A DNA stretch of 36,394 nucleotides from the NCBI GenBank assembly GCA_964637655.1, contig CAZWUZ010000005.1, positions 1 to 36,394 of the forward strand. The letters are read 5' to 3'. The stretch comes from an uncultured bacterium (GTDB taxonomy: Bacteria > DAOPZR01). Below, piece after piece: positions 2,203 to 31,517 of this stretch. Within the stretch, counting starts at the first letter, position 1. Each line of letters starts with the position of its first letter. The position numbers and the translations under genes were made by a program. The notes below the pieces were generated by a model, which was given only the letters and a program-made list of their open reading frames with translations, searched no databases and was not told the DNA's origin.

Positions 2203-2245
2203 GTATCACAGTATGGAGATACATCATGGAATCAGAAGACAATGC

Positions 2246-2306: not shown

Positions 2307-2333
2307 TTACGGCTGATTATAGAAAGGAAATCA

Positions 2334-3224: not shown

Positions 3225-3261
3225 TGAATTGCGAACCGCGTCGACGAAGTCAATATATGTC

Positions 3262-3326
3262 GGCCAACTTCGCGCTTCTGCGCTTCGCCGCTGACGCGGC
3301 TCAACGCATGGTGCTGATTGTTGGCC
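3262..3326 (+). repeat. attC site (65 bp)
   Basis: GGCCAAC (3262-3268) to GTTGGCC (3320-3326); nearly identical to the site at 41-105, with substitutions in L'. Confidence 0.9.
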
Positions 3327-3407
3327 GTACAGCAACGAAGTAGGACAGGCCGTCGATTGAATATTCTCCCCCCCCGCCGTAGCATTGGCGGCAGCAGGAA
3401 AGGCGGC

Positions 3408-5366: not shown

Positions 5367-5571
5367 AGAGGAACAAGGGGATGAAACCGCATGCGTCGCG
5401 TACAGCGGAAATGATTGGTTGATAAATGTTCTTGATGACCTCGCAATGGTCGTATGCTGAGTTCATCCCGCAGCAATGGAGCGCATCGACAACCTGCGGT
5501 GAGCCATTGAAGCGAAGATGGTGGAGGCGAACTGACACGAGTGATTAAGACGTCCCTGTCAGACCGGGATG

Positions 5572-5580
5572 TGGTATAAT
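5572..5580 (+). promoter_or_regulatory. Extended -10 promoter element (TGnTATAAT)
   Basis: TGGTATAAT in the intergenic region about 200 bp upstream of the 5777 operon; no consensus -35. Confidence 0.5.
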
Positions 5581-5776
5581 GTGGTTGATTGGCAAATATA
5601 CCCGGTAGGATTTTAGATGGAACCAAGGCAAACTGTCCTTAATCGCGTCAAGAAAGCTACTGTAGCCATTGTGTCCTGACAATAAACTATTTGTGCTGTA
5701 GACCTGTCTTATTTGATAGGTAGCAGCAACACTAGCTACAAAATATCAGGCAAGATGGTGGTAAAGGAGGCACTGT

Positions 5777-6928
5777 TTGAAAATATTGCCAGTCAAACGT
5801 TATATGCCTCCGTCGTACCCAACGCGAGCAATGCTACGAACCCATCCAGACCTCTTTCGTAGAAGTCCGAAACGTTGGCATAACAGCGCCCTAATAGCTG
5901 CCTTGCTTGCTACCACAGCCAGTGCAACATGGGCTGACAGCGGCCAGATAGCATCTCAAGCAACACGAGCTGTTTTGCCTACTGGTGTCCCCCCGCCACC
6001 TGTTGTATATTTCGTTGCGCTTTCGGAAGCCGATGCCTGCCAAGTTATTAACGAACAACTGGAAGAGGCGGGACTTCACACCACCACGGAGCAACTGATT
6101 ACCCGAAACTTGGCGCTTGAAACAGCAAGCCCAAATCAGTTGCCCGCTCAGTCAGGGTCAATTACTGAAACCATTTCGATAACATTTGATGGTGCCAATA
6201 TCGAGCACGGTATCTCCTACGAGTTTCTTTCCTGGGACGACCGCGCAGCAATTGGCGGAAATGGCATCGACAGGATTGAAGCATTCCGCTCTGCACTGGA
6301 AAAATCAAACCCGCGTGGAACCGATGCCGTGTTTTATGATACCCCGGTTTTACTGAGTGTTCTTCCAAATCTAGACGTAAAATGCTTCCCAGGGCTGGTC
6401 GTGAGCAACCGATTTACAGATAAGACGCTCATGCCGTTAAATGTTTTCCGATTTCCTCTCGGCTGTGGCATTGAGGCGTCTGATACTTCAACCATTACTT
6501 TGATGAATGGTGTTAAGAAAGTTATTGTCAACATCGGCAACGACATAGCGACAATCAACGATACTGTTATAACATTGCCGAGGCCTGTTACCACTATCGA
6601 CGGCATAGTATATGTTCCGGTTAGAGCAGTTGCGGAAGGATTGGGGTTTACCGTGATTCAGATGGAAGAAACGGGGATAATTGCCATCGAAAGTAACCCG
6701 CATTGCGCTAATCATCAACTTGATGGCACAAATTCGCAAGCAGTATATAGAGGCTCTTTTAGCCCGGTGTTGGTCCCTGCCGTTGATTCAGGAACGTCAG
6801 ATGGTTATGCTTTCATCAATTATGATATTGGAGCGCGGAATGCAATGGTGTTAAGGGAATCAAAACGCCTGTTGCGCTTGCAGGTAGAAGATTTCATTGC
6901 TTGGCTGAAAGCCGAGGGTGTCTTATGA
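5777..6928 (+). CDS. Exported protein with an inserted copper amine oxidase N-terminal (stalk)-like domain; paralog 1
   Basis: TTG start after AAGGAGG; basic leader, then hydrophobic ALIAALLATTASATWA; the segment INDTVITLPRPVTTIDGIVYVPVRAVAEGLGF is typical of the Cu-amine-oxidase N-terminal domain. Confidence 0.8.
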   Translation: MKILPVKRYMPPSYPTRAMLRTHPDLFRRSPKRWHNSALIAALLATTASATWADSGQIASQATRAVLPTGVPPPPVVYFVALSEADACQVINEQLEEAGLHTTTEQLITRNLALETASPNQLPAQSGSITETISITFDGANIEHGISYEFLSWDDRAAIGGNGIDRIEAFRSALEKSNPRGTDAVFYDTPVLLSVLPNLDVKCFPGLVVSNRFTDKTLMPLNVFRFPLGCGIEASDTSTITLMNGVKKVIVNIGNDIATINDTVITLPRPVTTIDGIVYVPVRAVAEGLGFTVIQMEETGIIAIESNPHCANHQLDGTNSQAVYRGSFSPVLVPAVDSGTSDGYAFINYDIGARNAMVLRESKRLLRLQVEDFIAWLKAEGVL

Positions 6929-8133
6929 ATTCCAGGAAGCGCTTGGCACAAGTGAGGCCAATCCCCTGCTATATCCCCCCCGAATATCCGACACGTGATA
7001 CTCTTCGGCTACATCCGGAAATGCTCCGCAAAACCCCGCATCGCTGGCAGAACAGCGTATTACTGGCTGCTTTGCTTGCTGCGACGTCCGGCACTGTGTG
7101 GGCCGACGATACCGTACAGCAGTTCCGCGTGCCACGCGTTGCCCCATTGTTTAAGCATGGCGACGGCAATATCGAATTTGATTATAGCCGGGCCGCAGTG
7201 AGCACTTCACCCATGCCTGTCCCTCCACAATACGCCGTTGCGCTTAACGAACATGATGCCTGTCAGATTATCAATGAACAATTGGAGCGGGCAGGATTGC
7301 CTATCAGTACTGAACAATTGATAGCATGCAATTTGAAACTCGACGTTGCCCGCCCATATCCGGCCTATTCCGCCCCACGCGGAACAAGCGCTGAAACAGT
7401 TCCAGTCGTCTTGGATGGTTTCAACCAAGAACACGGTATTTCCTACGAATATATTTCGCAGGATGACCGCGCATTGATTGGCGTCGGGGGAATTGTTGGA
7501 ATTGAAAATTTCCGCAATTCTTTACTGCAAGCAACACCTGACGGTGTCGATGCCGTGTTTTATGACCCCTCAACACAATTAAGCAGCGGGTTTTATTCGG
7601 CAATAGTCAGCGTTCCAGGCCTTGTTGCGACAAAGCGCTTCACTGACAAAACACTTATGCCGCTAAATGCCCTCCTCGGACTTATGCAGAACCAAGAACC
7701 ATGTACAGCCGCAACACAAACCATCATTTTGTTGAATGACACTTCAACCGTAATACTAAACAACGGGAGTAATGTCGCTGAAATAAACGGCGACACTGTG
7801 ACGTTGCCGGAACCGGTGACTGTAATCGAAGGCGTAGTGTATGCGCCGGTTAGAGCAGTAGTTGAAGGACTGGGCTTTGCGGTGAACTGGCAAGCTGACA
7901 GTGGGATAGTAGCTTTCACCGGTACGGTTACATGGCATGGTCGCAAGTTAGAATGGTGTCACAGTAGTCAAGTATTGGTACCTGCCGGGGATACAGAAGC
8001 GTTGGATGGTTATGCCTTCCTTGGTTATGCCCCCGAAGCAATGCGGGCATTTGCTCTGGTAGAATCAAAGCGCTTGTTACGCTTACAAGTGAGTGACTTC
8101 ATCGCGTGGCTGAAAGCCGAGGGAATACAATAG
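6925..8133 (+). CDS. Exported protein with an inserted copper amine oxidase N-terminal-like domain; paralog 2 (402 aa)
   Basis: ATGA overlap with paralog 1; colinear similarity over the whole length, including the C-terminal ESKRLLRLQVxDFIAWLKAEG. Confidence 0.8.
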   Translation: MNSRKRLAQVRPIPCYIPPEYPTRDTLRLHPEMLRKTPHRWQNSVLLAALLAATSGTVWADDTVQQFRVPRVAPLFKHGDGNIEFDYSRAAVSTSPMPVPPQYAVALNEHDACQIINEQLERAGLPISTEQLIACNLKLDVARPYPAYSAPRGTSAETVPVVLDGFNQEHGISYEYISQDDRALIGVGGIVGIENFRNSLLQATPDGVDAVFYDPSTQLSSGFYSAIVSVPGLVATKRFTDKTLMPLNALLGLMQNQEPCTAATQTIILLNDTSTVILNNGSNVAEINGDTVTLPEPVTVIEGVVYAPVRAVVEGLGFAVNWQADSGIVAFTGTVTWHGRKLEWCHSSQVLVPAGDTEALDGYAFLGYAPEAMRAFALVESKRLLRLQVSDFIAWLKAEGIQ

Positions 8134-8141
8134 GCTACACC

Positions 8142-9311
8142 ATGCACTTAACCCTGCATCTGACCGGACGCTGCAACTTACGTTGTCGCTACTGTTACGA
8201 CCAAATGAAAAGCGGCGGCGATATGACCCTTGATACGGCAAAAACTGCAATAGAATTCGCACTGCAGCAGTTTCGAAAGGAACAACGCAGTGGCAGCATG
8301 GGAATCAGCTTTTTCGGTGGCGAACCTTTATTGATGCGCGAACTTGTTAAGCAGACTGTACGACACTGCCGAGTGCTTTCGTCTGAAACCAAACAACTAT
8401 TCCACTTCCGACTGACCACCAACGGGACGTTGCTGGACGAGGAATTTCTCACTGGGACGGATACGGGGGAAATATTCGTGGCGTTAAGCCATGATGGTAT
8501 CGCTTCGGCGCACGACACCCATCGCGTTAATGCCACGGGCCACGGCAGTTTCGCCACGATTAACAGCGTCATTTACCTGCTACTGAGGCATAAACCTTAT
8601 TCGCCGGTCATGCTCACTGTGACTCCGGAGACAGCGGGTTCGTATGCGGAATCGGTAAAGTATCTGTATGGGCGTGGTTTTCGCTACCTCATTTGCACGT
8701 TAAACTTTGCAGGCGCGTGGAATGATGCTGCAATGAAGACATTGACCCGGCAATATCAACTCCTTGCTGAATGGTATGAACTGGAAATGAAAAAGGAGGA
8801 AAAGTTCTATTTCAGCCCATTTGAGAGTAAAATTGCCTCCCATGTTGTTCCAGGGAGCTGTCGGAAGGGGCGTTGTGATTTTGGCCGCCGTCAAATATCC
8901 GTGGCACCTAATGGACGGCTATATCCCTGCGTGCAATTTGTCGGTGATGGCAGCAACGACACTTACTGTATCGGTGATGTCTATTCGGGATTAGATACTG
9001 CCAAACACGCCGTGCTTTATGCCGAAAACGATGCTGATAAATCGGAATGTGGTCGATGTGCGGTACGCGAGCGATGCAACCATTTCTGCGGATGCTTGAA
9101 CTGGCAAGCGACCGGTCGCCTGACAAATGTTGCACCAGCGGTCTGTGCACACGAACGCATAATTATTCCAATTGTCGATAAAATGGCGACAAGCCTGTTT
9201 AAGAGCCGCAACGCTCTGTTTATACAGAAACACTATAATGACATTTATCCATTTCTCTCCCTAATCGAGGATATGCAGATGAAGGCAACGACAGATGGGA
9301 AATCCAATTGA
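8142..9311 (+). CDS. Radical SAM enzyme with SPASM domain (389 aa)
   Basis: CNLRCRYC (CxxxCxxC); FFGGEP; SPASM signature C...ISVAPNGRLYPC...IGDV followed by CGRCAVRERCNHFC (Cx2Cx5Cx3C). Confidence 0.95.
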   Translation: MHLTLHLTGRCNLRCRYCYDQMKSGGDMTLDTAKTAIEFALQQFRKEQRSGSMGISFFGGEPLLMRELVKQTVRHCRVLSSETKQLFHFRLTTNGTLLDEEFLTGTDTGEIFVALSHDGIASAHDTHRVNATGHGSFATINSVIYLLLRHKPYSPVMLTVTPETAGSYAESVKYLYGRGFRYLICTLNFAGAWNDAAMKTLTRQYQLLAEWYELEMKKEEKFYFSPFESKIASHVVPGSCRKGRCDFGRRQISVAPNGRLYPCVQFVGDGSNDTYCIGDVYSGLDTAKHAVLYAENDADKSECGRCAVRERCNHFCGCLNWQATGRLTNVAPAVCAHERIIIPIVDKMATSLFKSRNALFIQKHYNDIYPFLSLIEDMQMKATTDGKSN

Positions 9312-10774
9312 TGATTATCGCTAAAAGCAGACAAGCCCGAACATGGGCGAACCATATAGCGCTGATGATTGCTTTGTTATTGTGCCTGACCCTCCCGGCT
9401 GCATCAGACCCATATTGGGATGCGCCGCTGACGGTGATTAATACAACAGACCAACACAATCTCAGTTGGGGCGACACGCTGACAATTTCAGTTCAGCTCA
9501 AGAACGATTCGACCGGGCCGGTAACGTTCGAACCCTTGCGATTGAGCGTTCGGTACGTGATTTTGCCCGACTGTGATACAGGATATCTGTATTACATACC
9601 ACAAGCGATGGGACGTCGATATGAAAACCGCAGGTCATTGGGAGATACCGGTTTCGTCACCGTGAGACCAGGTGAAGTATATGAATGCGACAATATCGTA
9701 ACTGCGCAACTGGAGTTGTACGATTATTCGGGCACTGTTTCAGTGTGTGTCGTGGTAGACGGGTTTGACAGCACGTTTGCGACATGGGTGCACCACGGGA
9801 GACCGCTTTATTCAAGCGGACACATATCAGGCAATTATCTGCAGGTGCAATACGGACCTGTCCACCCGTTTACGATTGAAGAATATTTGGCTAGACAACA
9901 GACGTACTGGAGTGACGCGGATTCGACGACGGGCGAGCTCCATTCGCTTGTCGAATATCTGACATTTCCGACCCTTCGTGAGAGTTCCTTGCTTGCAATA
10001 GAGAATAGGCTAAAGGAATACCCTGATACAGAGGCCCTTCGCTGCCTCTATCTGCCGTATTGCAACGCGTCTTTATACGGTTGGCATTCCGGAATAGGGC
10101 CGCCGAACATGGACGATACGACGGTGCGATACGAATGGAAGCGGCCATGGCTCTATGGTGCTGGAATGGCGAGGATATGGTTCGGCTGCTTGCAACGCAT
10201 TCCTGTGGATGACCGATTGGCAGAATTGACGGCCATATATAATTCTTTGGAACGGGCAACGCTGAAGACCCAATTTGCTTCATGGGGGGCGCAGGACAAT
10301 CGTAGCATGTTGTCGGAAATCATCAAAGGAAACTGTAGTCCGCCTGCTCAAGAGCAGTTCTTGCTTGGAGTACTTGAGGATACCGGTGAATTCTGGGAAG
10401 TGCGCAATAGGGCGGCGTATAATCTGGTGCAATCAACTGGTCTGAAATACCGGCAGCAACTTGTTGCCCATGTTAGGCAGCATCCGCAACGATTGTGGGG
10501 AAGAAATTTCCCCGAGGAGGTCTTGCGCCGAATGTTCGCTGCGACGGCGCAGGAGAACGGTTGTGATACGGAATTAGTGCGGCTGGGATTTGAGCTGATT
10601 GAAGAAGCTGTGCAATACGACACTCGCTTCGCGCCAGCCATGGGACATATCATTGACATGCTCGAACAGTACCTGCATCAGAAGGTGACGCTTGAGGACT
10701 CGGAAGGTCCTGAAACAAAATTGCGGCAGGCGCATCAATGGTGGCTGATGAATCGTCAGAGATTCTGCGATTGA
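9311..10774 (+). CDS. Hypothetical secreted protein, N-terminal Ig-like domain plus C-terminal helical (HEAT-like) region
   Basis: TGATG overlap with the rSAM stop; hydrophobic IALMIALLLCLTLPAA; WGDTLTISVQLKN; WEVRNRAAYNL. Confidence 0.7.
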   Translation: MIIAKSRQARTWANHIALMIALLLCLTLPAASDPYWDAPLTVINTTDQHNLSWGDTLTISVQLKNDSTGPVTFEPLRLSVRYVILPDCDTGYLYYIPQAMGRRYENRRSLGDTGFVTVRPGEVYECDNIVTAQLELYDYSGTVSVCVVVDGFDSTFATWVHHGRPLYSSGHISGNYLQVQYGPVHPFTIEEYLARQQTYWSDADSTTGELHSLVEYLTFPTLRESSLLAIENRLKEYPDTEALRCLYLPYCNASLYGWHSGIGPPNMDDTTVRYEWKRPWLYGAGMARIWFGCLQRIPVDDRLAELTAIYNSLERATLKTQFASWGAQDNRSMLSEIIKGNCSPPAQEQFLLGVLEDTGEFWEVRNRAAYNLVQSTGLKYRQQLVAHVRQHPQRLWGRNFPEEVLRRMFAATAQENGCDTELVRLGFELIEEAVQYDTRFAPAMGHIIDMLEQYLHQKVTLEDSEGPETKLRQAHQWWLMNRQRFCD

Positions 10775-10842
10775 TAGTACTAGAAAACGGGACGAGGTTC
10801 ATATCAGGCTATGGCCACATTCGCGATGGAAGCTAGACGGTC

Positions 10843-11571
10843 ATGACCGTGCCGGCATTCTTCCGGTTCCCATCGCGAAGGCGTCTGCTGATATACGCCG
10901 TGGTCATTGCCGCGCTCGCCACCTATGGTCTTGCCTTTCACACCTATCACTACCGCGCCACTGAATATCTCGACTATAACCATGATGGGATTGCCAACCT
11001 TAACGACACCGACATCGATGGCGACGGCCTGGCGAATCTGTCCGATACCGACGCCGATGGCGACGGAGTTGAGAACCACGCTGACATAGTATCCGCCGCC
11101 AGGGGCATGGGCGGCACAATCTACGACTATTCCTCCGGCGGCTACAACAACTTCTTCGGGCGCTGCGGCCTGCTCGTGTGCATAGACGTGCCGCGCCTGG
11201 CCTATGCCGACGCCGGCATTTACCTTGAACAGCTGCTGCGGGATGACTTCCTGAAGCATCCCGAGCATTACGATACCCGGGCCGGAACCAACACGCCGGC
11301 CACCCCGTTTTTCTTCCGTAGGGTTACCAACCTGCTGGCATACTGTGAGACAAATGGCTACTACATGGTTGCGCAGAAGCCGGCGCCTGGCGACCTGCTG
11401 TTCTACGGCAGCATGCACATCACGATGGTCACTGCGGCATATCCGGACGGCACCTACGACGAAATCGAGTCGGCGCCGTGGACCGGCATGGTGGTCGAGC
11501 ACCGGCGTCTGCGCTGGACCCCCAGGGAAGTCGGGCGCATTATCCCGAATGAGGTGCAAAGTCCATCATGA
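10843..11571 (+). CDS. Membrane-anchored protein with DxDxDG Ca-binding repeats and a DUF1287/NlpC-P60-like domain
   Basis: N-terminal TM; DYNHDG, DIDGDG and DADGDG repeats; CIDVPRLAY...RRVTNL...PGDLLFY...HI pattern resembles DUF1287 proteins. Confidence 0.65.
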   Translation: MTVPAFFRFPSRRRLLIYAVVIAALATYGLAFHTYHYRATEYLDYNHDGIANLNDTDIDGDGLANLSDTDADGDGVENHADIVSAARGMGGTIYDYSSGGYNNFFGRCGLLVCIDVPRLAYADAGIYLEQLLRDDFLKHPEHYDTRAGTNTPATPFFFRRVTNLLAYCETNGYYMVAQKPAPGDLLFYGSMHITMVTAAYPDGTYDEIESAPWTGMVVEHRRLRWTPREVGRIIPNEVQSPS

Positions 11572-12515
11572 ATTCTGTCGTGCGCGTGCTGATGTTCGGC
11601 TGTGCTGTCATGCTGTTTGCCGGGTGCGCGACTGCACAGTATGCCCGTCCGGACCAGACCGTCAGCCTGGATGACATGAAGGCCACGGTGAACTACCTGA
11701 CGGCCATGCAGCCGCCGCGCAGCTTCGCGTTCCCAGAATCGCTGAACAATGCGGCGGACTATATCGCACGGAAATTGACCGCGTACGGCCTGAACCCAGA
11801 ACGGCAGTACTTCGATGTGCTCGGCGACACGTTCGTGAATATCGTGGCGAGCGTCGGCCCGCGACAGGGCAAGCGGCTGATTGTCGGCGCGCACTACGAC
11901 GTCTGCGGCAACCAGCCGGGGGCCGACGACAATGCCAGCGCCATCGCCGGCCTGCTGGAAATCGCTCGCTTTGCGAAGCAGCACGAGGCAGACTTGCGTT
12001 ACGGCATCGACTTCGTGGCCTATTCCCTTGAGGAACCCCCGTATTTCGGCACTCCGCACATGGGGAGTTTCGCTCACGCGCAAAGCCTCAAGCGGAACAA
12101 TGTTCCGGTCTACGGGATGATTTGTCTGGAGTCGATTGGCTACTTCACGGACGCGGAGAACTCGCAGCGATACCCGTCGGCGCTGCTGGAGGCATGCTAC
12201 CCGAGCACCGGCAACTTCATTGCCGTGGTCAGCGACATGGGCAGCATATCCCTGGCGAAACAGGTGGCGGAGCAGCTTGCGGCCACCGAAGTTGACGTGC
12301 AGACGCTGCATGCGCCGTCGTCCCTGGCCATGATTGACTTCTCCGACCACCGGAACTACTGGATGTTCGGCTTCGACGCCATCATGATTACCGACACCGC
12401 GCTGCTGCGCAATCCGAACTACCATAGGGGCAGCGATACGCCCACGACCCTTTCCTATGATAAGATGGGGGAAGTCGTCAGGGGGATTTGCTGGGCCATA
12501 CTGAATTTGAAGTAA
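11568..12515 (+). CDS. M28-family metallopeptidase lipoprotein
   Basis: Lipobox FAGC; VGAHYD, PGADDNASA, EEPP, LESIG and SDH zinc-ligand motifs; ATGA overlap with the upstream gene. Confidence 0.9.
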   Translation: MNSVVRVLMFGCAVMLFAGCATAQYARPDQTVSLDDMKATVNYLTAMQPPRSFAFPESLNNAADYIARKLTAYGLNPERQYFDVLGDTFVNIVASVGPRQGKRLIVGAHYDVCGNQPGADDNASAIAGLLEIARFAKQHEADLRYGIDFVAYSLEEPPYFGTPHMGSFAHAQSLKRNNVPVYGMICLESIGYFTDAENSQRYPSALLEACYPSTGNFIAVVSDMGSISLAKQVAEQLAATEVDVQTLHAPSSLAMIDFSDHRNYWMFGFDAIMITDTALLRNPNYHRGSDTPTTLSYDKMGEVVRGICWAILNLK

Positions 12516-12526
12516 AGGAGCAGAGT

Positions 12527-12583
12527 GGTCAACTATGCGCTCCTGCGCTCCTGCGCTTCGCCGCAGAGCGCTAATCGTTGGCT
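12527..12583 (+). repeat. attC site (57 bp)
   Basis: GGTCAAC (12527-12533) to GTTGGCT (12577-12583); L'' GCGCTCCTGCG and L' CGCAGAGCGC as at 41-105; 11 bp after the peptidase stop. Confidence 0.9.
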
Positions 12584-12608
12584 ACCGCAAAACACTTAGG
12601 GAGTGATT

Positions 12609-13028
12609 ATGGAAGATAAACGCGCACATCTTGAAATGATACAAGGGGTCATCAACAGATTGTCGCAGCACTCATTCCTCATCAAAGGATGGAGTGTTAC
12701 GTTAGTGTCTGCCTTGTTCGCTCTTGCGGCAAGCAGCGCTAATCAGTGCTTTCTCTATCTTGCATATTTTCCAGCAATCGCTTTTTGGATTCTTGATGGG
12801 TACTTCCTCTGGCAGGAGCGGCTATTCAGGGCACTCTACAATAAGGTGAGGGTTTTGGACGAGACTGGCATCGACTTTTCAATGGACACAGAAGAACTTA
12901 AGGCCAAAGAGAAATCGTGGTCTGATGCGATGTTATCCAAGACATTTCGCATATTTCACGGGACCATTATTGGTTCCATCGTAGTCGTGATGGGTATTGC
13001 CATTGTTCTAAACAAAGGAGGTTCGTGA
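12609..13028 (+). CDS. Small multi-pass membrane protein coupled to the TIR gene (139 aa)
   Basis: ATG 12609 after AGGGAG; about 3 hydrophobic segments; HLEMIQGVINRL..SFLIKGW motif, which I recall from proteins neighbouring DUF1863 TIR genes. Confidence 0.8.
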   Translation: MEDKRAHLEMIQGVINRLSQHSFLIKGWSVTLVSALFALAASSANQCFLYLAYFPAIAFWILDGYFLWQERLFRALYNKVRVLDETGIDFSMDTEELKAKEKSWSDAMLSKTFRIFHGTIIGSIVVVMGIAIVLNKGGS

Positions 13029-13474
13029 TGGCTCGCAGAGTATTTTTCAGTTTTCACTATCAGAGGGATATCTGGAGGGTAAACCAAATCAGAAACATTC
13101 CCAATGTTACCGGCTGCTCTGCAGCGGGATTTCAGGATGGGTCCATATGGGAGGAAGCAAAAAAGAAGGGTGATGCAGCCATCAAGAAGCTAATTGATGA
13201 TGGATTGAATAACACTTCAGTGACCGTGGTCTGCATCGGTTCAAAAACAGCAGGCCGAAAATACATAAACTACGAGATTCAACAATCAATAGCACGAGGC
13301 AATGGCATAGTCGGGATTCAGATTCATCATCTAAAAGACAAAGATGGGAACACCGACCCAGTTGGAAGCAGCCCTTCTGGAATCGAAAGTAACGGCTACA
13401 AGACCTACAAATACGTTGACCACGAGAAACTGGCAAACCGTATTGAAGAGGCGGCCCAGGCAGCTGGCAAGTAG
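13028..13474 (+). CDS. TIR-domain protein, ThsB/DUF1863 (MTH538)-like (148 aa)
   Basis: MARRVFFSFHY..DIWRVNQIRN; TSVTVVCIG; YINYEI keeps the catalytic Glu; TGATG overlap with the upstream gene. Confidence 0.9.
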   Translation: MARRVFFSFHYQRDIWRVNQIRNIPNVTGCSAAGFQDGSIWEEAKKKGDAAIKKLIDDGLNNTSVTVVCIGSKTAGRKYINYEIQQSIARGNGIVGIQIHHLKDKDGNTDPVGSSPSGIESNGYKTYKYVDHEKLANRIEEAAQAAGK

Positions 13475-13482
13475 AGAATAAC

Positions 13483-13549
13483 AGTTAACAACTGACTGGA
13501 GCATTACCGATGTCCCTGTGGCACCTGAAGTTCAGCCGAAGTGTCACCC
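13483..13549 (+). repeat. Degenerate attC-like site of a different sequence type
   Basis: AGTTAAC, 5 nt, ACTGGAGC ... GTTCAGC, 6 nt, GTCACCC. Spacing fits attC, but R' reads GTC rather than GTT; 8 bp after the TIR stop. Confidence 0.45.
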
Positions 13550-13616
13550 TCAAGGAGATTGAATACTGAACGATTGAGGATTGTTATGCGCAACGGCTGG
13601 TTGTATCTTCGCATTG

Positions 13617-13671
13617 TCGCTGCTGACGGGCGCGAAAAACAATAGCGCCCGCAGAGCGCTAATCGTTAACT
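13617..13671 (+). repeat. Partial attC site (left end lost)
   Basis: GGGCGC, A-rich loop, GCGCCCGCAGAGCGCTAATCGTTAACT matches the 2246 site; no recognisable R'' box. Confidence 0.75.
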
Positions 13672-13732
13672 GATGCGATAACGATATTATAGCAGTCAGA
13701 CTAACGGCATTTCCGAATAAGCTCAAACTGGA

Positions 13733-16357
13733 CTATCGTGGCAGGGTTTCGCGGGTCTCGAACCGGGTCCGTTGCTTTGCGATGGCATAATCCTCCAACT
13801 CGTCTGTTGAAAGGGCCAACACTTCCTCCATCGGGAACTCATCCCCCATAAATGGGTTTGGCAGTGGCTCGCAGCGGAATTGGCGATAGAGTTCCGTGGC
13901 TGTTGCGGGGGCATGACCGGTTCTGCGCTCATAGAGAAGAGCGTACTGACGCAGCAGGACTGTGCGCAGGATGCTTTGTACCTGAGGAGTAAGGGAAGTC
14001 ATGCGCCATTGCCTGGGAGACTGTCCGGCCAGTGAAATGGCCACCGCATTCATCGGTCGCAGTATCAGCTCGCGGGCCATGAGCGCCTGCCATCTTTCTT
14101 CCTGTTCCGACCGCTTCATGATGCCGGCATAATCCTGCTGCTCCATGAGGTCGGCAATATCGGCGTATTCGTTGACGATGACCTGGCGGACTCTGTCGGG
14201 ATTGGCGAGGGGATAGGTGAACCACCTGCTACCCGTGGTTAAGTCGATGGTGTATTCGGCCTTGACGAGTCCCTGGAGGCGCAGGGCGTCGGCGATGAGT
14301 TTCGGGATGCGCTGCGTGCAGCGACGTTCCAGCTGCGCATAGGATTCCAGCAGCTTTGGGTCAAGCAAATCGGGGTCGCGTTCGAACAGGGCGTCGGCGG
14401 TAATCAGCGATTCAATCAGGCAGGCCTGCCCGACCGTGTGCGGCAGCACGCCCGGCAGTTCGAGCAGATGTTCGCCGAGTTTGGTCATTCTCGCCAGTCG
14501 TGTCAATGCCGCGCTGGTGTCACCGTAATCGTATTTATCCAGAACTGCCAGTTGCTCCTGCTTGAAGATGCTGATGAGAAAGAGGCATCTTAGTTCAGGA
14601 CTGGTCTGCTCCGTGTAGACATCAGGCATGACGACTTTCAGATTGTGCTGGCTGTAGTAGGAGAATATGTCCTCACGTAATCGGCTGGTGCGCTCGAGTA
14701 TGCGCCTGACGTCATCATCTATGGGCTGGGACAGGTTTTCCTGCGCGGCATCAATTGTTTCGTATGTATCGCCAGCTTCGCTTATCGGGCTGAATGCTTC
14801 GTGGAACCGTTGTGTAGTGGCGATAAGGTCGGCGGAACTGGCGCTATATGCGGGGTCGCGCCAAGCTTCAGTGGGGTATGGCGGGTTGAACTTCGTCAGG
14901 AACGGCAGATTGCCGACAAGCAGCAGCATAATCCAGAGCAATGGCAGCAGAATGAGCGCATACCCGGCGACTCGCACGGCATAGCGCCAAGCGTTGCGGG
15001 CGCGGAAGACTGTATGGAAATACTGCAAGGACAGCATCGCGGCGCTGGCGGCAATGATGATGAGCAAGGAAGGCATAGCAGAAAAAAGCAGAGAGACGAC
15101 ATTGCTCCCCATATACCTTTCGTGGACTAGATATGCGATTACCTGCGAGTCTGGTGAGTCCATGCCGGTTGCCAGCAGCGGCAGCATCAGCAGGCCTACG
15201 ACCAGGAGCGGGAATAGCAGCGAGAGAAAGACGCCGACCATCGGTCCCGGGGCGAAACACGAAGCGAGAAAGGCGAGGGCATAGACATAGAGCAGAGAGC
15301 TGAATTGTGCGTCGACAATTGCCTGAATGCCGTTGCCCAGAAAATTCTGCTCGACACTGCTGCCAATAGTCATGGAACTCACCCGGCCAAATGCCTGTCC
15401 AGGGTTATCGCCGACCGGCGCGGGGAGGATGACAGACAGAACGCTGCTAAACAGCAGGACGAGCGCCAGACCGAGCAGAAACTTGACGCTGCCGATGACA
15501 GCAGGACGCAGCGGCAGGGCCAGAACGCTGCCGAGCGTGCGCTCCGCCCGTTCGCCGGCGACGAGGCGATTGGCGACTACGATGGCGAAAAATAGCGTCA
15601 GCAGGCGGCCGACGACAAGGTAGCCGACTATGCCATCAGCGTCCGCGCCGCCAAGGTAATGGAGCCGCATGAGCAGCAGCGCGGCGAGCATCATGAACGC
15701 GACGATTGTGGGCAACAGCAAACGCAGATTATTGAAGATTAGTGTTCGGATAATGCGCGTCTGCCGCGCGGCAGCACCCGGGGCAGCAATAGTGCGCATG
15801 AATAGCGGCAATGAGATGAGCAATATCGGGACAACGGCCAGGTAAGCGACATTCTCGGTATATCCTTCATCGGAGAACAGCATGCAGGTGTTCAGCACGA
15901 TGCTGCCGCCAATCGATACAATCACGGCGAGCAGCAGCGACAGCCACAGGCGCCGAGCCAGGGATGCGCCAATGACGGCGAAAGCCACGCAGTACCCCAA
16001 GACCGCATAGTCGATAAGGAAACCGGAAGTGTTCGGGTCGGTCGGGGAATGCAAGGCGTTGACGATAGCGAAAATAGCAATGGCGAAAAGCAAAGTGACT
16101 GCATAGCCAAGGGCGATAACCAGCAGCCAACAGAGAAAAGGACGAACGACCCCATTGCCAATAATCGGGCGGCAACCTCGGACAAGCAGGGTGATGTACA
16201 GCGGAACCGTCAGCAGCGAAGCAAACAGCAATAATCCGAATCCCTCATCGCCGGCGTCCAGGCCGCGCAGCAGGCAGGCGAGTACGGCAATAATGAGCAG
16301 CGCCGGACCAAAGACGAGCAACATCCGCTTCAGTTCGCCGCGCACGATATAAATCAT
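13733..16357 (-). CDS. ABC-2-type permease with two membrane modules and a C-terminal soluble domain (874 aa)
   Basis: Start reassigned to ATG 16357 (TAATG overlap); many TM segments; ERAERTLGSVLALPL permease motif; hydrophilic C-terminal region of about 330 aa. Confidence 0.85.
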   Translation of the reverse strand: MIYIVRGELKRMLLVFGPALLIIAVLACLLRGLDAGDEGFGLLLFASLLTVPLYITLLVRGCRPIIGNGVVRPFLCWLLVIALGYAVTLLFAIAIFAIVNALHSPTDPNTSGFLIDYAVLGYCVAFAVIGASLARRLWLSLLLAVIVSIGGSIVLNTCMLFSDEGYTENVAYLAVVPILLISLPLFMRTIAAPGAAARQTRIIRTLIFNNLRLLLPTIVAFMMLAALLLMRLHYLGGADADGIVGYLVVGRLLTLFFAIVVANRLVAGERAERTLGSVLALPLRPAVIGSVKFLLGLALVLLFSSVLSVILPAPVGDNPGQAFGRVSSMTIGSSVEQNFLGNGIQAIVDAQFSSLLYVYALAFLASCFAPGPMVGVFLSLLFPLLVVGLLMLPLLATGMDSPDSQVIAYLVHERYMGSNVVSLLFSAMPSLLIIIAASAAMLSLQYFHTVFRARNAWRYAVRVAGYALILLPLLWIMLLLVGNLPFLTKFNPPYPTEAWRDPAYSASSADLIATTQRFHEAFSPISEAGDTYETIDAAQENLSQPIDDDVRRILERTSRLREDIFSYYSQHNLKVVMPDVYTEQTSPELRCLFLISIFKQEQLAVLDKYDYGDTSAALTRLARMTKLGEHLLELPGVLPHTVGQACLIESLITADALFERDPDLLDPKLLESYAQLERRCTQRIPKLIADALRLQGLVKAEYTIDLTTGSRWFTYPLANPDRVRQVIVNEYADIADLMEQQDYAGIMKRSEQEERWQALMARELILRPMNAVAISLAGQSPRQWRMTSLTPQVQSILRTVLLRQYALLYERRTGHAPATATELYRQFRCEPLPNPFMGDEFPMEEVLALSTDELEDYAIAKQRTRFETRETLPR

Positions 16358-17001
16358 TAGCGGACCTCGCCGTTCAGCATATCGCATATTCTCACCCACA
16401 GCGGCTTGCGATGTACATGCAGGAAAAAGCGGAGTGAAAGAAGGAAGACGACGGCAGCGAACAGCACGGCTGCGGCGCTGGTCATGACTTCTGCGCGGGT
16501 ATCGATGTAGACGCCCGCGCCAGCGCCATACATGGAACCGGCGATGAAACTGACGAGGACTGCGACTATGGTGTTGGTGCTGAAGCATGAAACGGTGAAG
16601 GAAATGCTGTAGAACGCGAGCAGATATGCGTAAGCCAAGGCGCGGGTCTGGTCTGGCATGCCGGCCTGCACGATGATGACGGTGGCGCCAAGGGCAGATA
16701 TGAGCGAAACCACCAGGCCGAACAGGTACTTGACCAGCCACAGGCGGTACGGTGTCACCGGGAGCGCGGTAAGGGGCACGAAAGTGCCGCTCTGCCGCTC
16801 ATCGGCCACCAGTTGCGCCGCAATTAGCATAGCCAGCAGCGAGGCGATGCCGTACGCAGCGGCAACAAAGTTGCGGGGGTCGAGCGTGAGCAGGTCGGGC
16901 CGACGCTGGGAGTAGGAATAGTAGGCGATGAGCGCCAGCAGTGCGAACAGTATGACCGGTCTCGCCGCGCGCAGTTCCTTGCGGATGAGGACGATATACA
17001 T
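16357..17001 (-). CDS. ABC-2-type permease (214 aa)
   Basis: ATG 17001 (TAATG overlap); IRKELR start; ERQSGTFVPLTALPV...WLVKY motif; about 6 TM segments. Confidence 0.85.
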   Translation of the reverse strand: MYIVLIRKELRAARPVILFALLALIAYYSYSQRRPDLLTLDPRNFVAAAYGIASLLAMLIAAQLVADERQSGTFVPLTALPVTPYRLWLVKYLFGLVVSLISALGATVIIVQAGMPDQTRALAYAYLLAFYSISFTVSCFSTNTIVAVLVSFIAGSMYGAGAGVYIDTRAEVMTSAAAVLFAAVVFLLSLRFFLHVHRKPLWVRICDMLNGEVR

Positions 17002-18989
17002 TATCGGCTCTCGCGATTCCATGCGCGCTGCTGAATGCGCTTTGCTGTTGTCTGCGGATATTCGAAATCGATACGGCCGTCGGCGGTGATTACCGCATCC
17101 GGGAACGGCTGGCCGGTAAAATCATCGAGGAAAGGCGTTAGGTTATAGTGCCGGTAGACGGTATCGGGTGTCATTGCCCGCCTGCCGGTTTCACGGCGAT
17201 AGCGGGCGAGCAGCAGGTGCAGGCGGGCTAGGCGCAGCATGTCAATGACCGACGCCGAGTTGTTTAAGACGCTGTTGAGCTTCGGCGTGGCAACTTCTAT
17301 GAGCGTGACGGCAGCGGGATAGAGCAGATATTCCGTCCTGCTGTAGGTCAGCTGCGGCAGTCGGCCGGCAACCGTGTAATACGGCCGGGTGCTCGCCGCA
17401 ATCAGCTGGCGTACCAGTTCGGTGTGGTACTCGGCGAATATGCGCTTGTTGCCGAAGGGATAGCCGATGCCGAGGTTGGTCAGGACGGAGGTCGCGCCGT
17501 CGAAATAGGCGCTTTCCACGATGAACGCGCTGACGAACGCATGGCGCGCCTTATTCTCGAGCGTGGCGAACTCCCGGTCGAGTGCGGCAATGAAGCGCGG
17601 GTCGGCGCTTCCGTCGAGTGGGACAATGGCGCAGGCGGCTTCCGCAGCTATGCCCGTATTGGCGATGCCGACAAGCTGCAGGAACAGGGTTGAACTGTCC
17701 AGGCAATGGTCGGTGGCCGCCATGAGGCGCAGCGCTTGTTGCTGTGCTTGTCCAAGATTGCCACGCCTAGCCTCGCGCCTGATGTCGAAGCTTTCGAGTT
17801 TCCATAGCGATATGAGCGTTCCCCCGTCCGGTGCATAGCCGCTGTCGGTATTATAGAGCGCATAAGGTGATTGGCAATACGGGGTGAGCGGGTGGGCTGC
17901 GGCATAGTCGAAGAACTCGTTGCGCAGTGCCGCAGTGCTGTCGAGTATCGCGCTCATCGCCGGAGTGGGTATCGTGTCCCAGTCCGTGGTGAGATTGGCC
18001 TGGAAATCACGGTCGTAGCTCGTACCGAAATCGGTCTTGAACTTGGCGGTGAGCCGCTGGAATTCCTGCGCGGATGCGAGATTGTCGGGATTGCGCAGGA
18101 AGTCGGCGTCGAACCCCGGCGAAGGCGGATTCAGAACGGGCAGGTTGACGACTGAAAGCAGCAGCAGATAGGCGAGCGCGACGGCGACCGGCAGGAAGGC
18201 GGGCGTGACAGCCAGGGCATAGGCGCGCAGGCGGACGGCCTGGCGGCGATGATGATGCTTGAACGCCGCGAAGGAGAGCGCCAAGGCCGATATCAGGCCG
18301 CAGAGGACCACGACACAGCATCCGCCAACAAACAGGCTATCGAATGCACTTGAGGAAACGGCGCAGAAAGGCAAATTCAGAAAGAACGCTGCCATCATCA
18401 CCATGACGAATAGGACTTGGGTCAAGCCCAACAGCAGGAAACCGGAGAGGCTGGCGACGATAGCGTTCGGGGAGAAGGTGGCGGCAACGAAGCTGATGGC
18501 ATAGGCGGCGACGGCCAGGTACAGAACCACTCCGATGACTTGCGCCTCCGTCCATTCGATGCCGGCAAGCAGTTGCTGCACCATGGGTTCCGCCGGCGAA
18601 ACTCGTTCAACTCCGAGGATATCGTATCGGTCTGGCGCAAAGGGGGTTAGAGAATAGGCTTCGCAGTAGCAGGCATAGGCGATGTAGGCAAACAGCGCGA
18701 AGAGCAGGGTGAGCGCGAGCCCGCTGAAGAACTTGATGAGCCATAGCCGCTGCGGGACGATGGGCAGCGACATGAGCGCGGCCAGATGCTGCTTTTCCTT
18801 CTCACTTGCAACCACCTGATTGGCGATTAGAATGGCGGCTAAGATTGGTAGAGAGCCGCATGACATCAGGAAAAGGCCGGGTGTGGTCGGCAAGTTGTCA
18901 AGTCCGAGAATGGCAAGGAACGCGGCGAGCAGACCGAATACGACCACGCGCAGGGAACGGAAATCCTTGCGGATGATAGTCCTAAGCAT
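17001..18989 (-). CDS. ABC-2-type permease fused to a C-terminal soluble domain (662 aa)
   Basis: ATG 18989 overlaps the ATPase stop; EKEKQHLAALMSLPI...LWLIKF motif; C-terminal domain resembles that of 13733-16357. Confidence 0.85.
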   Translation of the reverse strand: MLRTIIRKDFRSLRVVVFGLLAAFLAILGLDNLPTTPGLFLMSCGSLPILAAILIANQVVASEKEKQHLAALMSLPIVPQRLWLIKFFSGLALTLLFALFAYIAYACYCEAYSLTPFAPDRYDILGVERVSPAEPMVQQLLAGIEWTEAQVIGVVLYLAVAAYAISFVAATFSPNAIVASLSGFLLLGLTQVLFVMVMMAAFFLNLPFCAVSSSAFDSLFVGGCCVVVLCGLISALALSFAAFKHHHRRQAVRLRAYALAVTPAFLPVAVALAYLLLLSVVNLPVLNPPSPGFDADFLRNPDNLASAQEFQRLTAKFKTDFGTSYDRDFQANLTTDWDTIPTPAMSAILDSTAALRNEFFDYAAAHPLTPYCQSPYALYNTDSGYAPDGGTLISLWKLESFDIRREARRGNLGQAQQQALRLMAATDHCLDSSTLFLQLVGIANTGIAAEAACAIVPLDGSADPRFIAALDREFATLENKARHAFVSAFIVESAYFDGATSVLTNLGIGYPFGNKRIFAEYHTELVRQLIAASTRPYYTVAGRLPQLTYSRTEYLLYPAAVTLIEVATPKLNSVLNNSASVIDMLRLARLHLLLARYRRETGRRAMTPDTVYRHYNLTPFLDDFTGQPFPDAVITADGRIDFEYPQTTAKRIQQRAWNRESR

Positions 18990-19860
18990 TGGCGACTTCA
19001 CGGCGGAAGATGGTTTCAAGGTCGAGTGGTGCCGTTTCTACCGTCGCGCCAGCCTTGGTCAGGGTTGCGGCCAGCGCTTCGCCGCCGTCGCGGTAGTAGA
19101 GCGTCAGGACATTGCCTTCGCGGCTGACTTCCTGCGCTCCATGCAGGTTGAGGTTCGCGGGTATACCGGAGGAGAACATAGCGGTCAATTCACCTCGAAC
19201 TGCTCGGATGGCGTCGATGCTGTCGTCCAGCTGGATATGCTGCCGGTGCAGCAGCATGACGCGGTCGCAGAAGCGCTCGATGTCGCTGAATTGGTGGCTG
19301 GAAATCAGCACGGTGCGCTCGCCTCCAGCGACATACTCGGAGAGAAGCTGCAGGATATCCGTGCGCACGACCGGGTCGAGCCCGGAGAAGGGCTCGTCGA
19401 GCAGCAGCAGCTCGGGATGATGGGCGAGGGCCAGCACCAGCAGCAGGCGGGTCTTCATGCCCTTGGAATAGGTCTTCACCTTGCCCTTGCCCGTCAGCGA
19501 AAGCCGTTCCAGCAGGCCCGTGGCATAGGTCGCGTCCCAGGTCGGATAGAAGGCGCCGACGAAGGCGCAGAGCTGTTCGGCTGTCATCCAGTCGTACCAC
19601 TGGAAGGCGTCAGGCACGTACCCTGTGCGGGCGCGGATGGCCACGCCCTGCGCCAGTGCGGGCAGGCCGAGCACCTTCAACTCGCCCGCGTCCGCCTCTA
19701 GCAGGCCGAGCAGCAGGCGGATGAGCGTGGTCTTGCCGACCCCGTTCTCGCCCACCAGCCCGGTCACCGAACCCTGTGGCAGGGCAAAAGAGATGCCGTC
19801 AAGCACCTGGTTGCGCCGGAAGCGCTTGCTGACGCGTTCAACCGTAACGGGGGTGGTCAT
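18982..19860 (-). CDS. ABC transporter ATP-binding protein (YtrB-like, 292 aa)
   Basis: Walker A GENGVGKTT; signature YSKGM; Walker B LLLLDEP; H-loop SSH; ATGA overlap with the GntR gene. Confidence 0.95.
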   Translation of the reverse strand: MTTPVTVERVSKRFRRNQVLDGISFALPQGSVTGLVGENGVGKTTLIRLLLGLLEADAGELKVLGLPALAQGVAIRARTGYVPDAFQWYDWMTAEQLCAFVGAFYPTWDATYATGLLERLSLTGKGKVKTYSKGMKTRLLLVLALAHHPELLLLDEPFSGLDPVVRTDILQLLSEYVAGGERTVLISSHQFSDIERFCDRVMLLHRQHIQLDDSIDAIRAVRGELTAMFSSGIPANLNLHGAQEVSREGNVLTLYYRDGGEALAATLTKAGATVETAPLDLETIFRREVANA

Positions 19861-20243
19861 ATGGCCTGCTCCATAGTGTGGCGCTGCAGCGCCTGCTGGA
19901 CCCTGTTCAGGACGGTCGCGGGCGGGACCTGCTGCGCCAGCAGCCGGGCGACGAGCTCGTCGAGGCGATGCAGGTCGGCGGTTCCGAATTCGCGCCGGCA
20001 CAGGGCGGGCGCCTTTTCCGTCAGGTAGACGCCCTTGCCGCGTCGCGTGCTGATTATGCCGGCGAACTCCAGCATCTGGTAGGCGCGCATCACCGTGTTG
20101 GGGTTGATGGCAAGCGTGCCAGCGAGGGCGCGCACCGAGGGCAGCATTTCGCCCGGGGAATAGTGCCCCTGCAACACCTGACGTTTGATGCCGTCGACGA
20201 CCTGGGCGTTGATGGGGACGGGACTCTTAGGGTCTATGCGCAT
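19857..20243 (-). CDS. GntR-family transcriptional regulator, YtrA subfamily (128 aa)
   Basis: PGEMLPSVRALAGTLAINPNTVMRAYQMLE...RRGKGVY; short C-terminus; heads an ABC operon. Confidence 0.95.
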   Translation of the reverse strand: MRIDPKSPVPINAQVVDGIKRQVLQGHYSPGEMLPSVRALAGTLAINPNTVMRAYQMLEFAGIISTRRGKGVYLTEKAPALCRREFGTADLHRLDELVARLLAQQVPPATVLNRVQQALQRHTMEQAI

Positions 20244-20269
20244 GGCGATTACACCGCCTTTCAGTATGA

Positions 20270-20308
20270 CTGTATTAAGATGATAGTACAGATACAAGAG
20301 GTTGTCAA
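20270..20308 (-). promoter_or_regulatory. Sigma-70 promoter with overlapping palindromic GntR operator
   Basis: Minus strand TTGACA (20308-20303), 17 nt, TATCAT (20285-20280). The palindrome CTGTATTA-N6-TAGTACAG (20270-20291) overlaps the -10. Confidence 0.85.
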
Positions 20309-20372
20309 GTTCAAGGAAGGGTTCTGATATTTTCCCTGAAAAGTGGTATGGGTGTTTGTGGGGTAAGGAATT

Positions 20373-20681
20373 TCACATCCCGAGTTCCTCCCGCAATGCC
20401 GCTGCCCGCCTCGCCAGCCCGGCCTCGACCGGCTCGCTGCTCGGCTCCCTGTACTCTGCCGTCCCGTCCTCGAGCTTGACGACACAGCGGAGCAGCGTCT
20501 CGACCAATTCGTCGTAGGTGCCGATGTCTTCTAGCGACAGCAGAACCTCAACATTGAGTGGGTCGTTCTTGAGGAAGCCCCGATAGCCGACAAGTCCATT
20601 GCTCAAGTGGACCGTCACCGGCATCTCTAATCGTGCCTCAATCTTTTCCACTAGCTCACGAAACTCGGTATATTCTCCCAT
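20373..20681 (-). CDS. Hypothetical protein (102 aa)
   Basis: ATG preceded by GGGAGGAA; co-oriented downstream of clpP. Confidence 0.65.
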   Translation of the reverse strand: MGEYTEFRELVEKIEARLEMPVTVHLSNGLVGYRGFLKNDPLNVEVLLSLEDIGTYDELVETLLRCVVKLEDGTAEYREPSSEPVEAGLARRAAALREELGM

Positions 20682-20702
20682 GATATTCCTCCCTGTGATT
20701 TA

Positions 20703-21311
20703 TTATGCCCGAGCCAATGGCTCGACAGCCGGCGCCAACACCTTGTCAATCAGTCCGTACTCCAATGCTTCTGTCGCGGAGAACCACTTGTCTCGGTCGA
20801 AATCTGCCGCGACCTTTTCCGCGGTCTGCCCGCACGCCGCCGCAATCATCGCGTTCAGCCTCGCCCTGGTCTTGAGCACGTGTTCCGCAGCGATAACGAC
20901 ATCGCTCGCCTGACCCTGCACCCCGGTAAGCGGCTGATGCAGCATCACTTCACAGTTCGGCATCACCGACCTATGCCCCCTCTGGCCCGCGCAGGCGAGC
21001 AGCACGGCGCCCATGCTGGCGCAGCACCCCCAGCCAATAGTGCTGATGGGATTGCTGATGGACTTGCACACGTCAACCATCGCGAGCCCGTCGGACACGC
21101 TGCCTCCGGGCGAGTTGATGTAGATGGTGATGCGCCGATGCGGGTCTCGGGAGCTTATGTACATGAGCTGCGCACCAAACGCATGACTCATCTCCGTGGT
21201 TATGGCACCGGAGACGAGGACGACACCGTCATCCAGCAACTCTTCTGATATGCCACCCCGGCGCTCGGCCTCGCTGCGCCTCAGAACGCGAATCCCATGT
21301 GGTGCTGTCAT
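20703..21311 (-). CDS. clpP: ClpP-family serine protease subunit
   Basis: IYINSPGGSV; CASMG (Ser); MLHQP (His); DRDKWFSATEALEYGLID (Asp region). Confidence 0.92.
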   Translation of the reverse strand: MTAPHGIRVLRRSEAERRGGISEELLDDGVVLVSGAITTEMSHAFGAQLMYISSRDPHRRITIYINSPGGSVSDGLAMVDVCKSISNPISTIGWGCCASMGAVLLACAGQRGHRSVMPNCEVMLHQPLTGVQGQASDVVIAAEHVLKTRARLNAMIAAACGQTAEKVAADFDRDKWFSATEALEYGLIDKVLAPAVEPLARA

Positions 21312-21622
21312 TGGTCTCTCCTTTCTTCACCACCGAAGAGGCGCGTATATATCAACGCTTCTGCCCGAATGGCCTCCATTTCCACCGGGTCAGGCTGGGT
21401 GGGCCGACGCTCCGCATCCGGCTTCGGAAATACTGGTTGGATGGCGAAGTCCGTTCGCAACTCGTCCCGCATGTCGCTCGGCGCATCCGTCTGCTTAGGC
21501 GTGGCCTTCTCATTGTGTTGCTCCTTTGATTTGATATTCTGCGGCGTGGGCATGCGGATAAGCACGCGCGGCTGTGCCTGCTGCGTTTGCCGCAATATCC
21601 ACAAATCATTCCGAGTTTTCAT
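21308..21622 (-). CDS. Hypothetical protein (104 aa)
   Basis: ATGA overlaps at both ends: with the ATPase stop and with the clpP start. Confidence 0.6.
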   Translation of the reverse strand: MKTRNDLWILRQTQQAQPRVLIRMPTPQNIKSKEQHNEKATPKQTDAPSDMRDELRTDFAIQPVFPKPDAERRPTQPDPVEMEAIRAEALIYTRLFGGEERRDQ

Positions 21623-31504: not shown

Positions 31505-31517
31505 CGGAGACGAGTGA

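Follow-up and report, generated by a model that had tools for sequence, protein, structure and literature searches.

A predicted type V Thoeris gene pair (thsF-thsB) in the last cassette of an integron-type array

Overview

Two adjoining genes of the window (the whole 36,394-nt stretch of DNA analysed here), thsF and thsB, very probably form a type V Thoeris antiphage system that is carried on a cassette of 1,088 bp and acts by the mechanism proposed below. Judged by sequence similarity, the pair is a member of a system type that has already been named, type V Thoeris (ThsB plus ThsF), and that is listed in PADLOC as PDC-M50; the system type is not new. The preliminary description had put forward a candidate minimal Thoeris-like antiphage system, and could not tell whether the pair had been named. 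The proposal is supported, and the pair does have a name, which by the criterion of that description takes away novelty only. With the system type named and validated, and its signal molecule known, the pair carries little weight as a discovery, and its value lies in annotation and in a number of modest additions; what is notable about it is chiefly its place in an integron cassette array.

Structure and composition of the gene pair

Gene A, thsF (PADLOC PDC-M50A; nt 12609–13028, + strand), encodes a protein of 139 aa, the predicted type V Thoeris effector. Its ATG start codon has the motif GGGAG 6 nt upstream, and an alternative GTG start is found at nt 12603. Gene B, thsB (nt 13028–13474, + strand), encodes a stand-alone TIR protein of the ThsB/DUF1863 type, 148 aa in length, and its ATG is preceded by GGAGG, also 6 nt upstream. 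The two genes meet in the sequence TGATG, where the TGA stop codon of thsF (nt 13026–13028) has its last base in common with the ATG of thsB. This one-base overlap is compatible with translational coupling, as had been claimed for the pair. Both ORFs are full length, have good Shine-Dalgarno sequences, and retain every family-invariant residue. The pair had also been described as AT-rich, and its G+C content is indeed 45.7%, compared to 60% in the upstream genes and 57.6% in the downstream gene. The identical protein occurs on two JGI contigs, which at 1.5–1.7 kb are too short to give any wider context; the identical gene is present in JGI 3300076265 and 3300076266.

Assignment to type V Thoeris

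The PADLOC models PDC-M50A and PDC-M50B are both present, and adjacent, in the window, and each matches its protein over the full length (1.8e-52 for ThsF, 1.4e-49 for ThsB), so that the pair is already catalogued there. PDC systems are untested candidates whose collection from RM, BREX or DISARM loci relied on 'guilt by embedding' (Payne et al., bioRxiv 10.1101/2024.01.29.577857; PADLOC-DB v2). No mechanism is assigned to PDC-M50, and a text search of the literature for 'PDC-M50' found no paper in which the name is used.

Type V Thoeris, consisting of ThsB and ThsF, was described by Yirmiya et al. (bioRxiv 10.64898/2025.12.03.692087, Dec 2025; hereafter the preprint). There, ThsF is given as 'annotated DUF2270' with three membrane-spanning helices, and its AF3 model is a channel-like, homo-heptameric ring whose inter-protomer pockets are positively charged. 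B. subtilis was protected by two type V systems, those of B. thuringiensis DAR 81934 and of Bacillus sp. 1NLA3E, and homologous type V TIRs made 3'cADPR upon infection, including in cells that carried only the TIR. Exogenous 3'cADPR was toxic to cells with the B. thuringiensis system, and the Tad1 sponge lowered type V defence. Phage protection, infection-dependent 3'cADPR and toxicity set off by 3'cADPR are shown together for the DAR 81934 homologue only. The Bacillus sp. 1NLA3E variant, though validated, showed no intoxication by 3'cADPR, and the preprint suspects a different signal for one type V variant. A representative from Vibrio cholerae gave no defence in E. coli. The earlier reading of the window pair, a Thoeris-like system with the membrane protein as a non-canonical effector, accords with this behaviour of the homologous system.

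Membership of the window pair was examined by way of the type V ThsB from B. thuringiensis DAR 81934 (IMG 2624526259, Table S1 of the preprint). A protein 100% identical to this TIR (P0121) gave its locus (L088) and, directly downstream of the TIR gene, a neighbour encoding a product of 141 aa. Its identification as ThsF relies on IMG gene IDs that run consecutively and on the 100% identity of the TIR, and not on a sequence in print. The window ThsF is 47% identical to this neighbour over 130 aa (BLASTP E 1e-40), and the profile of the window ThsF family aligns with it at an hhalign probability of 100% (E 1.4e-42). Table S1 has B-like TIRs (RRVFFSFHYQRDIWRVN...) under the label 'DUF2270 - Type V', and the window ThsB is 51% identical (E 3e-47) to one of them.

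The B. thuringiensis locus is itself set in a defence island. A Gabija-like pair (UvrD helicase and OLD-TOPRIM ATPase) and a DAC-domain protein adjoin the type V genes (nt 1–1119 and 4454–6759 of L088).

The TIR protein, ThsB

The window TIR matches Pfam ThsB_TIR (PF08937) at 3e-25 and the PADLOC ThsB1 model at 2.5e-57. Its residues 1–118 align with B. cereus ThsB1 (PDB 6LHY/9B7D) at E 5e-33, the deposited title of those entries being 'putative cyclic ADP-D-ribose synthase'. Residue E83, in the motif YINYEI, is paired in this alignment with the WVRYEI Glu of B. cereus ThsB, counted there as E85, which according to Ofir et al. in 2021 reportedly has a catalytic role. The Pfam match and the aligned Glu bear out what had been said of this protein, namely that it is a stand-alone ThsB/DUF1863-like TIR with an intact Glu. 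On these similarities, it is a member of the signal-producing ThsB clade and close kin of B. cereus ThsB1.

The membrane protein, ThsF

Hydropathy places three hydrophobic segments in ThsF, at about residues 23–44, 46–63 and 112–139, a pattern that is the same as that of B. thuringiensis ThsF. The AF2 model is all-helical (helices 2–43, 47–82 and 111–136; pLDDT 85, pTM 0.74), and together these results agree with the 139-aa membrane protein of about three TM segments that had been reported. A Foldseek search of the model against the PDB gave no structural analogue, as nothing matched at E ≤ 0.001 and the weaker hits were helical bundles of a generic kind. The partner had further been said to carry neither SIR2/SLOG nor Macro domains, and scans of ThsF and of the window's large ORFs detected none of these; for the Macro domain, ThsF has no Pfam match at E ≤ 1. 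In NCBIfam, no match was found for either ThsF or ThsB.

Two family assignments were tried for ThsF and rejected. ThsF is not a recognisable SLATT protein (a class said to have been described by Burroughs et al. in 2015), as ThsF and 20 relatives match no SLATT family of Pfam at E ≤ 1. Nor can it be placed in Pfam DUF2270 (PF10028). This is the sole Pfam match of ThsF listed at E ≤ 1, and at 14.5 bits (E 0.026, residues 27–109) it lies below the gathering threshold of 25 bits; among 20 members of the family just 2 show a match, and the validated B. thuringiensis ThsF also fails in hmmscan. Since the TIR clusters of the preprint were annotated via hhsearch, the DUF2270 label given to ThsF is presumably a profile-profile annotation.

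Across the wide ThsF family, residues R17, S22, F23, K26, G27, W28, F59, D63, L67, R74 and Y77 are invariant, while Q69 and E70 are near-invariant. The conserved basic residues R17, K26 and R74 would be compatible with the positively charged pockets modelled between protomers. Of the residues that remain invariant in distant ThsFs, R17, K26, W28, D63, R74 and Y77 offer direct targets for probing the proposed ligand pocket.

Distribution of the family and its partners

The ThsF family comprises 3168 clusters (90% identity) at E ≤ 1e-3, nearly all with members of 130–147 aa, and a scan of 185,579 species genomes (one genome per species) gave at least 563 relatives. The best 80 of these at least 563 relatives, some of them from archaeal MAGs, span more than 15 phyla and are 53–77% identical to the window protein. 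Adjacency was counted in the 77 loci, drawn from the best 80 relatives, that have room downstream. A B-like TIR gene follows directly on the same strand in 59 of the 77, and a TIR of another type in a further 6 (three with a different ThsB_TIR, two with TIR_2, and one with a CAP12-type TIR), so that a TIR-type gene of some kind stands immediately downstream in 65. In one locus, a SLOG protein takes the place of the TIR. The pairing, on the conservation of which the preliminary description had made its reading depend, is conserved.

Genes like thsF were also found on 142 plasmid records, including 40 of Klebsiella and 36 of Escherichia, and among the plasmid matches listed with an annotated gene, every one is labelled 'hypothetical protein'. 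At all four of the plasmid loci inspected, a TIR gene adjoins the thsF-like gene, in either order. A C. botulinum plasmid has a TIR of the B. thuringiensis type together with a ThsF-like protein (hhalign probability 98%). The family is very large yet invisible to Pfam and NCBIfam, and standard pipelines report its members as 'hypothetical', those on the 142 plasmids included.

Members of the ThsF family are found with at least four different families of TIR and, in one case, with a SLOG protein. Such promiscuity suits an exchangeable effector that responds to a signal better than it would a dedicated sensor. Among 54 homologous pairs, a range-restricted sample, the identities of ThsF and ThsB to the respective window proteins are barely correlated (Spearman 0.18, p 0.19). 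One locus (L009) has a ThsF of 61% and a ThsB of 87% identity, another (L001) a ThsF of 73% and a ThsB of 50%. Given the restricted range of the sample, this is at most a hint of partner shuffling.

The partner data bear on whether the roles of the two proteins might be reversed, with the TIR as an NAD+-depleting killer, as are the TIR effectors of CBASS, Pycsar and pAgo systems, and the membrane protein as a sensor of infection or membrane stress. Many bacterial TIRs are NADase effectors, which had to be filtered out in the preprint (10.64898/2025.12.03.692087), and Pfam recognises no ligand-binding domain in the membrane protein. However, ThsB falls in the signal-producing clade (5e-33 to B. 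cereus ThsB1), cells with only the homologous TIR made 3'cADPR on infection, and added 3'cADPR was toxic to system-bearing cells, while the variety of partners is more in keeping with an exchangeable effector. A reversal of roles is considered highly improbable. The membrane protein had been called an effector or a sensor; by analogy with the homologous system, the effector role is retained for ThsF and that of sensor is not favoured.

In two Poriferisodalis MAG chromosomes (loci L037 and L046, nt 4405–5508), a gene for a 5-hmdU DNA kinase helical-domain protein follows the thsF homologue and overlaps its stop codon, with no TIR gene at that place. The copy in L037 matches PF18723 at 5e-107, and that in L046 is near-identical by eye. 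This type of DNA hypermodification gene is usually phage-borne.

The cassette array

Six co-oriented sites of one attC family lie on the + strand of the window (nt 41–105, 947–997, 2246–2306, 3262–3326, 12527–12583 and approximately 13600–13671). Each follows an ORF, and their centres are variable. The 18-mer CGCAGAGCGCTAATCGTT has 4–5 matches on the + strand, compared to an expected 0.04. The family has inverted core boxes, GGCCAAC...GTTGGCC, and the bottom strand folds into imperfect hairpins in which R'' and R' are paired, with the best three reaching z values of -5 to -6. The array is of the integron type, and the upstream boundary of the ThsF-ThsB cassette is sound.

That boundary lies in the attC of the preceding cassette (nt 12527–12583; R'' GGTCAAC, R' GTTGGCT), which begins 12 nt past the stop codon of an M28 peptidase gene. 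Its crossover point (G/TT, nt 12577/12578) opens the ThsF-ThsB cassette, and its hairpin is weaker than the best three (-15.3 kcal/mol, z -2.4, R boxes paired 5/7). At the other end, the stop codon of thsB is followed by a non-coding spacer within the cassette (nt 13475–13599, + strand) that contains only short ORFs and extends to the recognisable part of a terminal attC-like site (approximately nt 13600–13671, + strand; R' GTTAACT). The crossover point of the latter (G/TT) is at nt 13665/13666, and with these limits the cassette would occupy nt 12578–13665, 1,088 bp.

The terminal site has the same 18-mer as the other copies, and a 31-mer that is 94% identical to nt 2272–2302. Its R' and L' boxes and central stem are kept, its 5' half is degenerate, its R boxes are unpaired in the fold, and there is no convincing R'' at the usual distance. 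In a fold of 199 nt, the 3' half of this attC pairs with nt 13570–13578, and the spacer may hold, though this is uncertain, a weak R''/L'' (approximately nt 13566–13580) of an attC of roughly 106 nt. The pair had been described as flanked by attC-type sites. For the upstream side this applies fully, the site being good if weaker than the best; on the downstream side R', L' and the central stem are in place and a paired R'' box is missing.

No further copy of the attC family was found in the window downstream of nt 13671, making the ThsF-ThsB cassette the last of the array. No integrase domain was detected in any window ORF scanned, and the array starts at base 41; an intI gene may lie beyond the end of the contig, and a complete integron and a CALIN fit the data alike. 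Taken as it stands, the arrangement suggests that type V Thoeris may move as an integron cassette.

Cassettes are not where such pairs are usually found. A heuristic attC finder, of limited sensitivity in that it recovers 4 of the 6 window sites, gave no enrichment beside homologous pairs (4/57 downstream and 4/58 upstream, compared to 11/234 control windows), and clear attC sites are present beside only two of them (L003 and L011). Integron carriage is real in this window and in a few other genomes, and is not the usual context. The point is relevant to a reading in which the pair acts mainly as an addiction or stabilisation module, similar to a toxin-antitoxin system, that keeps the array from being lost, and not in antiphage immunity. 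Chromosomal integron arrays often carry TA cassettes, and the tight coupling of the two genes, together with the distal position of their cassette in the array, would suit such a role. Against this, most homologous pairs lie outside detectable cassettes (the counts just given), homologues protect from phage and are not constitutively toxic, and searches of Pfam, NCBIfam and PADLOC gave no resemblance to a known TA family for either of the two proteins. An addiction module is extremely improbable, and an antiphage function remains the preferred reading.

Whether the cassette is expressed is a separate matter. No sigma-70-like promoter was found in nt 12300–13900, where 2.0 would be expected, and as the last of the array, with a decayed attC, the cassette may be poorly expressed. 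The genes could then be intact and yet silent or decaying cargo, a promoterless last cassette with a damaged attC that is neither expressed nor mobile in its host and is no more than a store of genetic material. Besides the lack of a promoter-like site, the unpaired R'' box of the terminal attC and the 9.2-kb attC-free block that separates the cassette from the proximal ones speak for this. The full-length ORFs, their good Shine-Dalgarno sequences and the retention of all family-invariant residues speak against it, as does the upstream M28 peptidase gene, which shares the strand of the pair and stops 12 nt short of the attC, and so makes read-through possible. We regard silent cargo as unlikely; it is a question of expression, and the functional assignment of the pair to type V Thoeris would hold in either case.

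Other features of the window

The 9.2 kb between two of the attC sites (nt 3326–12527) contain no attC of the family and are far too long for a normal cassette. This region includes a block of 70% G+C (nt 3500–5500) that has long ORFs on both strands without a Pfam match. It is followed by tandem paralogues with a Cu_amine_oxidN1 domain (nt 5777–6928 and 6901–8133), the DNA repeats of which are 74–81% identical, and by a gene for a radical SAM protein (nt 8106–9311). A 488-aa ORF, a DUF1287 protein and the M28 peptidase are also encoded there. The region may have been inserted into the array, or may be a cassette of several genes, and perhaps serves in peptide modification as a cluster. Upstream of it (nt 105–3326) are three single-ORF cassettes (nt 151–861, 1129–2202 and 2334–3224), two of them at 41–43% G+C, none with a match in Pfam or PADLOC; these uncharacterised cassette genes are in the same array as the defence system.

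Beyond the array, nt 13733–23556 (- strand) encode a multi-pass membrane protein of 1002 aa that matches nothing in Pfam, then an ABC-2 permease, an ORF of 672 aa and an ABC ATPase with mad3/AriA-like matches in PADLOC. ClpP (nt 20703–21311, - strand) and an ATPase resembling T4SS coupling proteins, with a weak mad8 match (nt 21619–23556, - strand), are found in the same region. A transporter is one possible reading of it; another is that it belongs to a defence or mobile element.

The right end of the window (nt 29156–36313) looks like a defence island. It carries genes for a protein with Schlafen AlbA_2, HATPase_c_4 and Fic-like_C domains and weak PADLOC matches to pAgo-associated models (nt 29156–30718), for a low-G+C, Cthe_2314-like HEPN protein (nt 30761–31504), and for a type I restriction-modification system (hsdR, nt 31518–34226; hsdM, nt 34236–35633; and a probable hsdS from nt 35633). 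Just upstream of the HEPN gene, a 12-nt unit, AGGGAACAAGTT, is repeated four times in tandem (nt 30476–30523), and may be a regulatory or iteron-like element.

Proposed mode of action

ThsB, a stand-alone TIR enzyme and the predicted sensor of phage as well as synthase of the signal, would be silent until phage infection, upon which it would convert NAD+ into a cyclic ADP-ribose signal. Because ThsB is a ThsB1-clade TIR, 3'cADPR is favoured as the isomer, and on balance appears the likeliest, by a modest degree of confidence. The signal would bind ThsF, a three-helix inner-membrane protein predicted to form a ring-shaped homo-oligomer, on its cytoplasmic face. In the topology proposed here, a cytoplasmic N-terminal helix and residues 66–110 would make up the ligand site, and it is in these regions that R17, K26, R74, Y77, Q69 and E70 are found. 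Once activated, ThsF would breach the membrane, and the infected cell would cease to grow or die before the phage cycle ends (abortive infection).

That the window member acts like its validated homologues is inferred by analogy. Both its signal and its activity in a given host are uncertain, because the 1NLA3E system ignores 3'cADPR and the V. cholerae system is inactive in E. coli. A more far-reaching suggestion is that pairs of this kind, with thsF first and coupled to a short ThsB1-clade TIR, form a distinct subtype of type V that has been spread over phyla by integron cassettes, and in which ThsF perhaps senses a signal other than 3'cADPR. This is offered tentatively, and we hold it to be rather doubtful. 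If true, no type V Thoeris cassette would have been documented before that of the window in an integron array of the chromosomal type, and the 'biobanks' represented by integrons would be tied to TIR signalling immunity.

Comparison with known systems

The window pair shares with type V Thoeris a two-gene operon consisting of a TIR and a three-TM membrane protein of about 140 aa. It differs in gene order, which is thsF-thsB with a 1-nt overlap in the window and thsB-thsF in B. thuringiensis, and in its TIR, which is of the short ThsB1/DUF1863 clade (148 aa, compared to 252 aa in B. thuringiensis), a different clade from that of the TIRs of the two validated systems. In addition, the window pair lies in a predicted integron cassette.

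In type I Thoeris (B. cereus MSX-D12: ThsB with the SIR2-SLOG protein ThsA), the TIR is close to that of the window, which is likened to ThsB1 and keeps the catalytic Glu, and the two probably share the same class of signal, 3'cADPR. Unlike type I, the window pair has no SIR2/SLOG effector, and no ThsA (SIR2 or TM-Macro with SLOG) was found beside the window ThsB. With a small membrane protein as the partner, damage to the membrane is predicted in place of the NAD+ depletion of type I. Type II Thoeris (Macro-TM ThsC), type VII Thoeris (SLATT ThsH) and the membrane effectors of CBASS have in common with the present proposal a nucleotide signal that leads to an oligomerising membrane killer. The signal is His-ADPR in type II and canonical cADPR in type VII, and ThsF has neither a Macro nor a SLATT match in Pfam at E ≤ 1.

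The 'Tragantia' system, brc22/brc23 (Kieffer et al., bioRxiv 10.1101/2024.07.02.601719), is similar in that its genes are antiphage integron cassettes encoding a ThsB-like TIR and a membrane-associated partner. In Tragantia, however, the TIR comes first, and the partner has about 300 aa and a Deva-like fold. It is carried by mobile integrons of Enterobacteria, whereas the window array is of the chromosomal type, with homogeneous attC sites.
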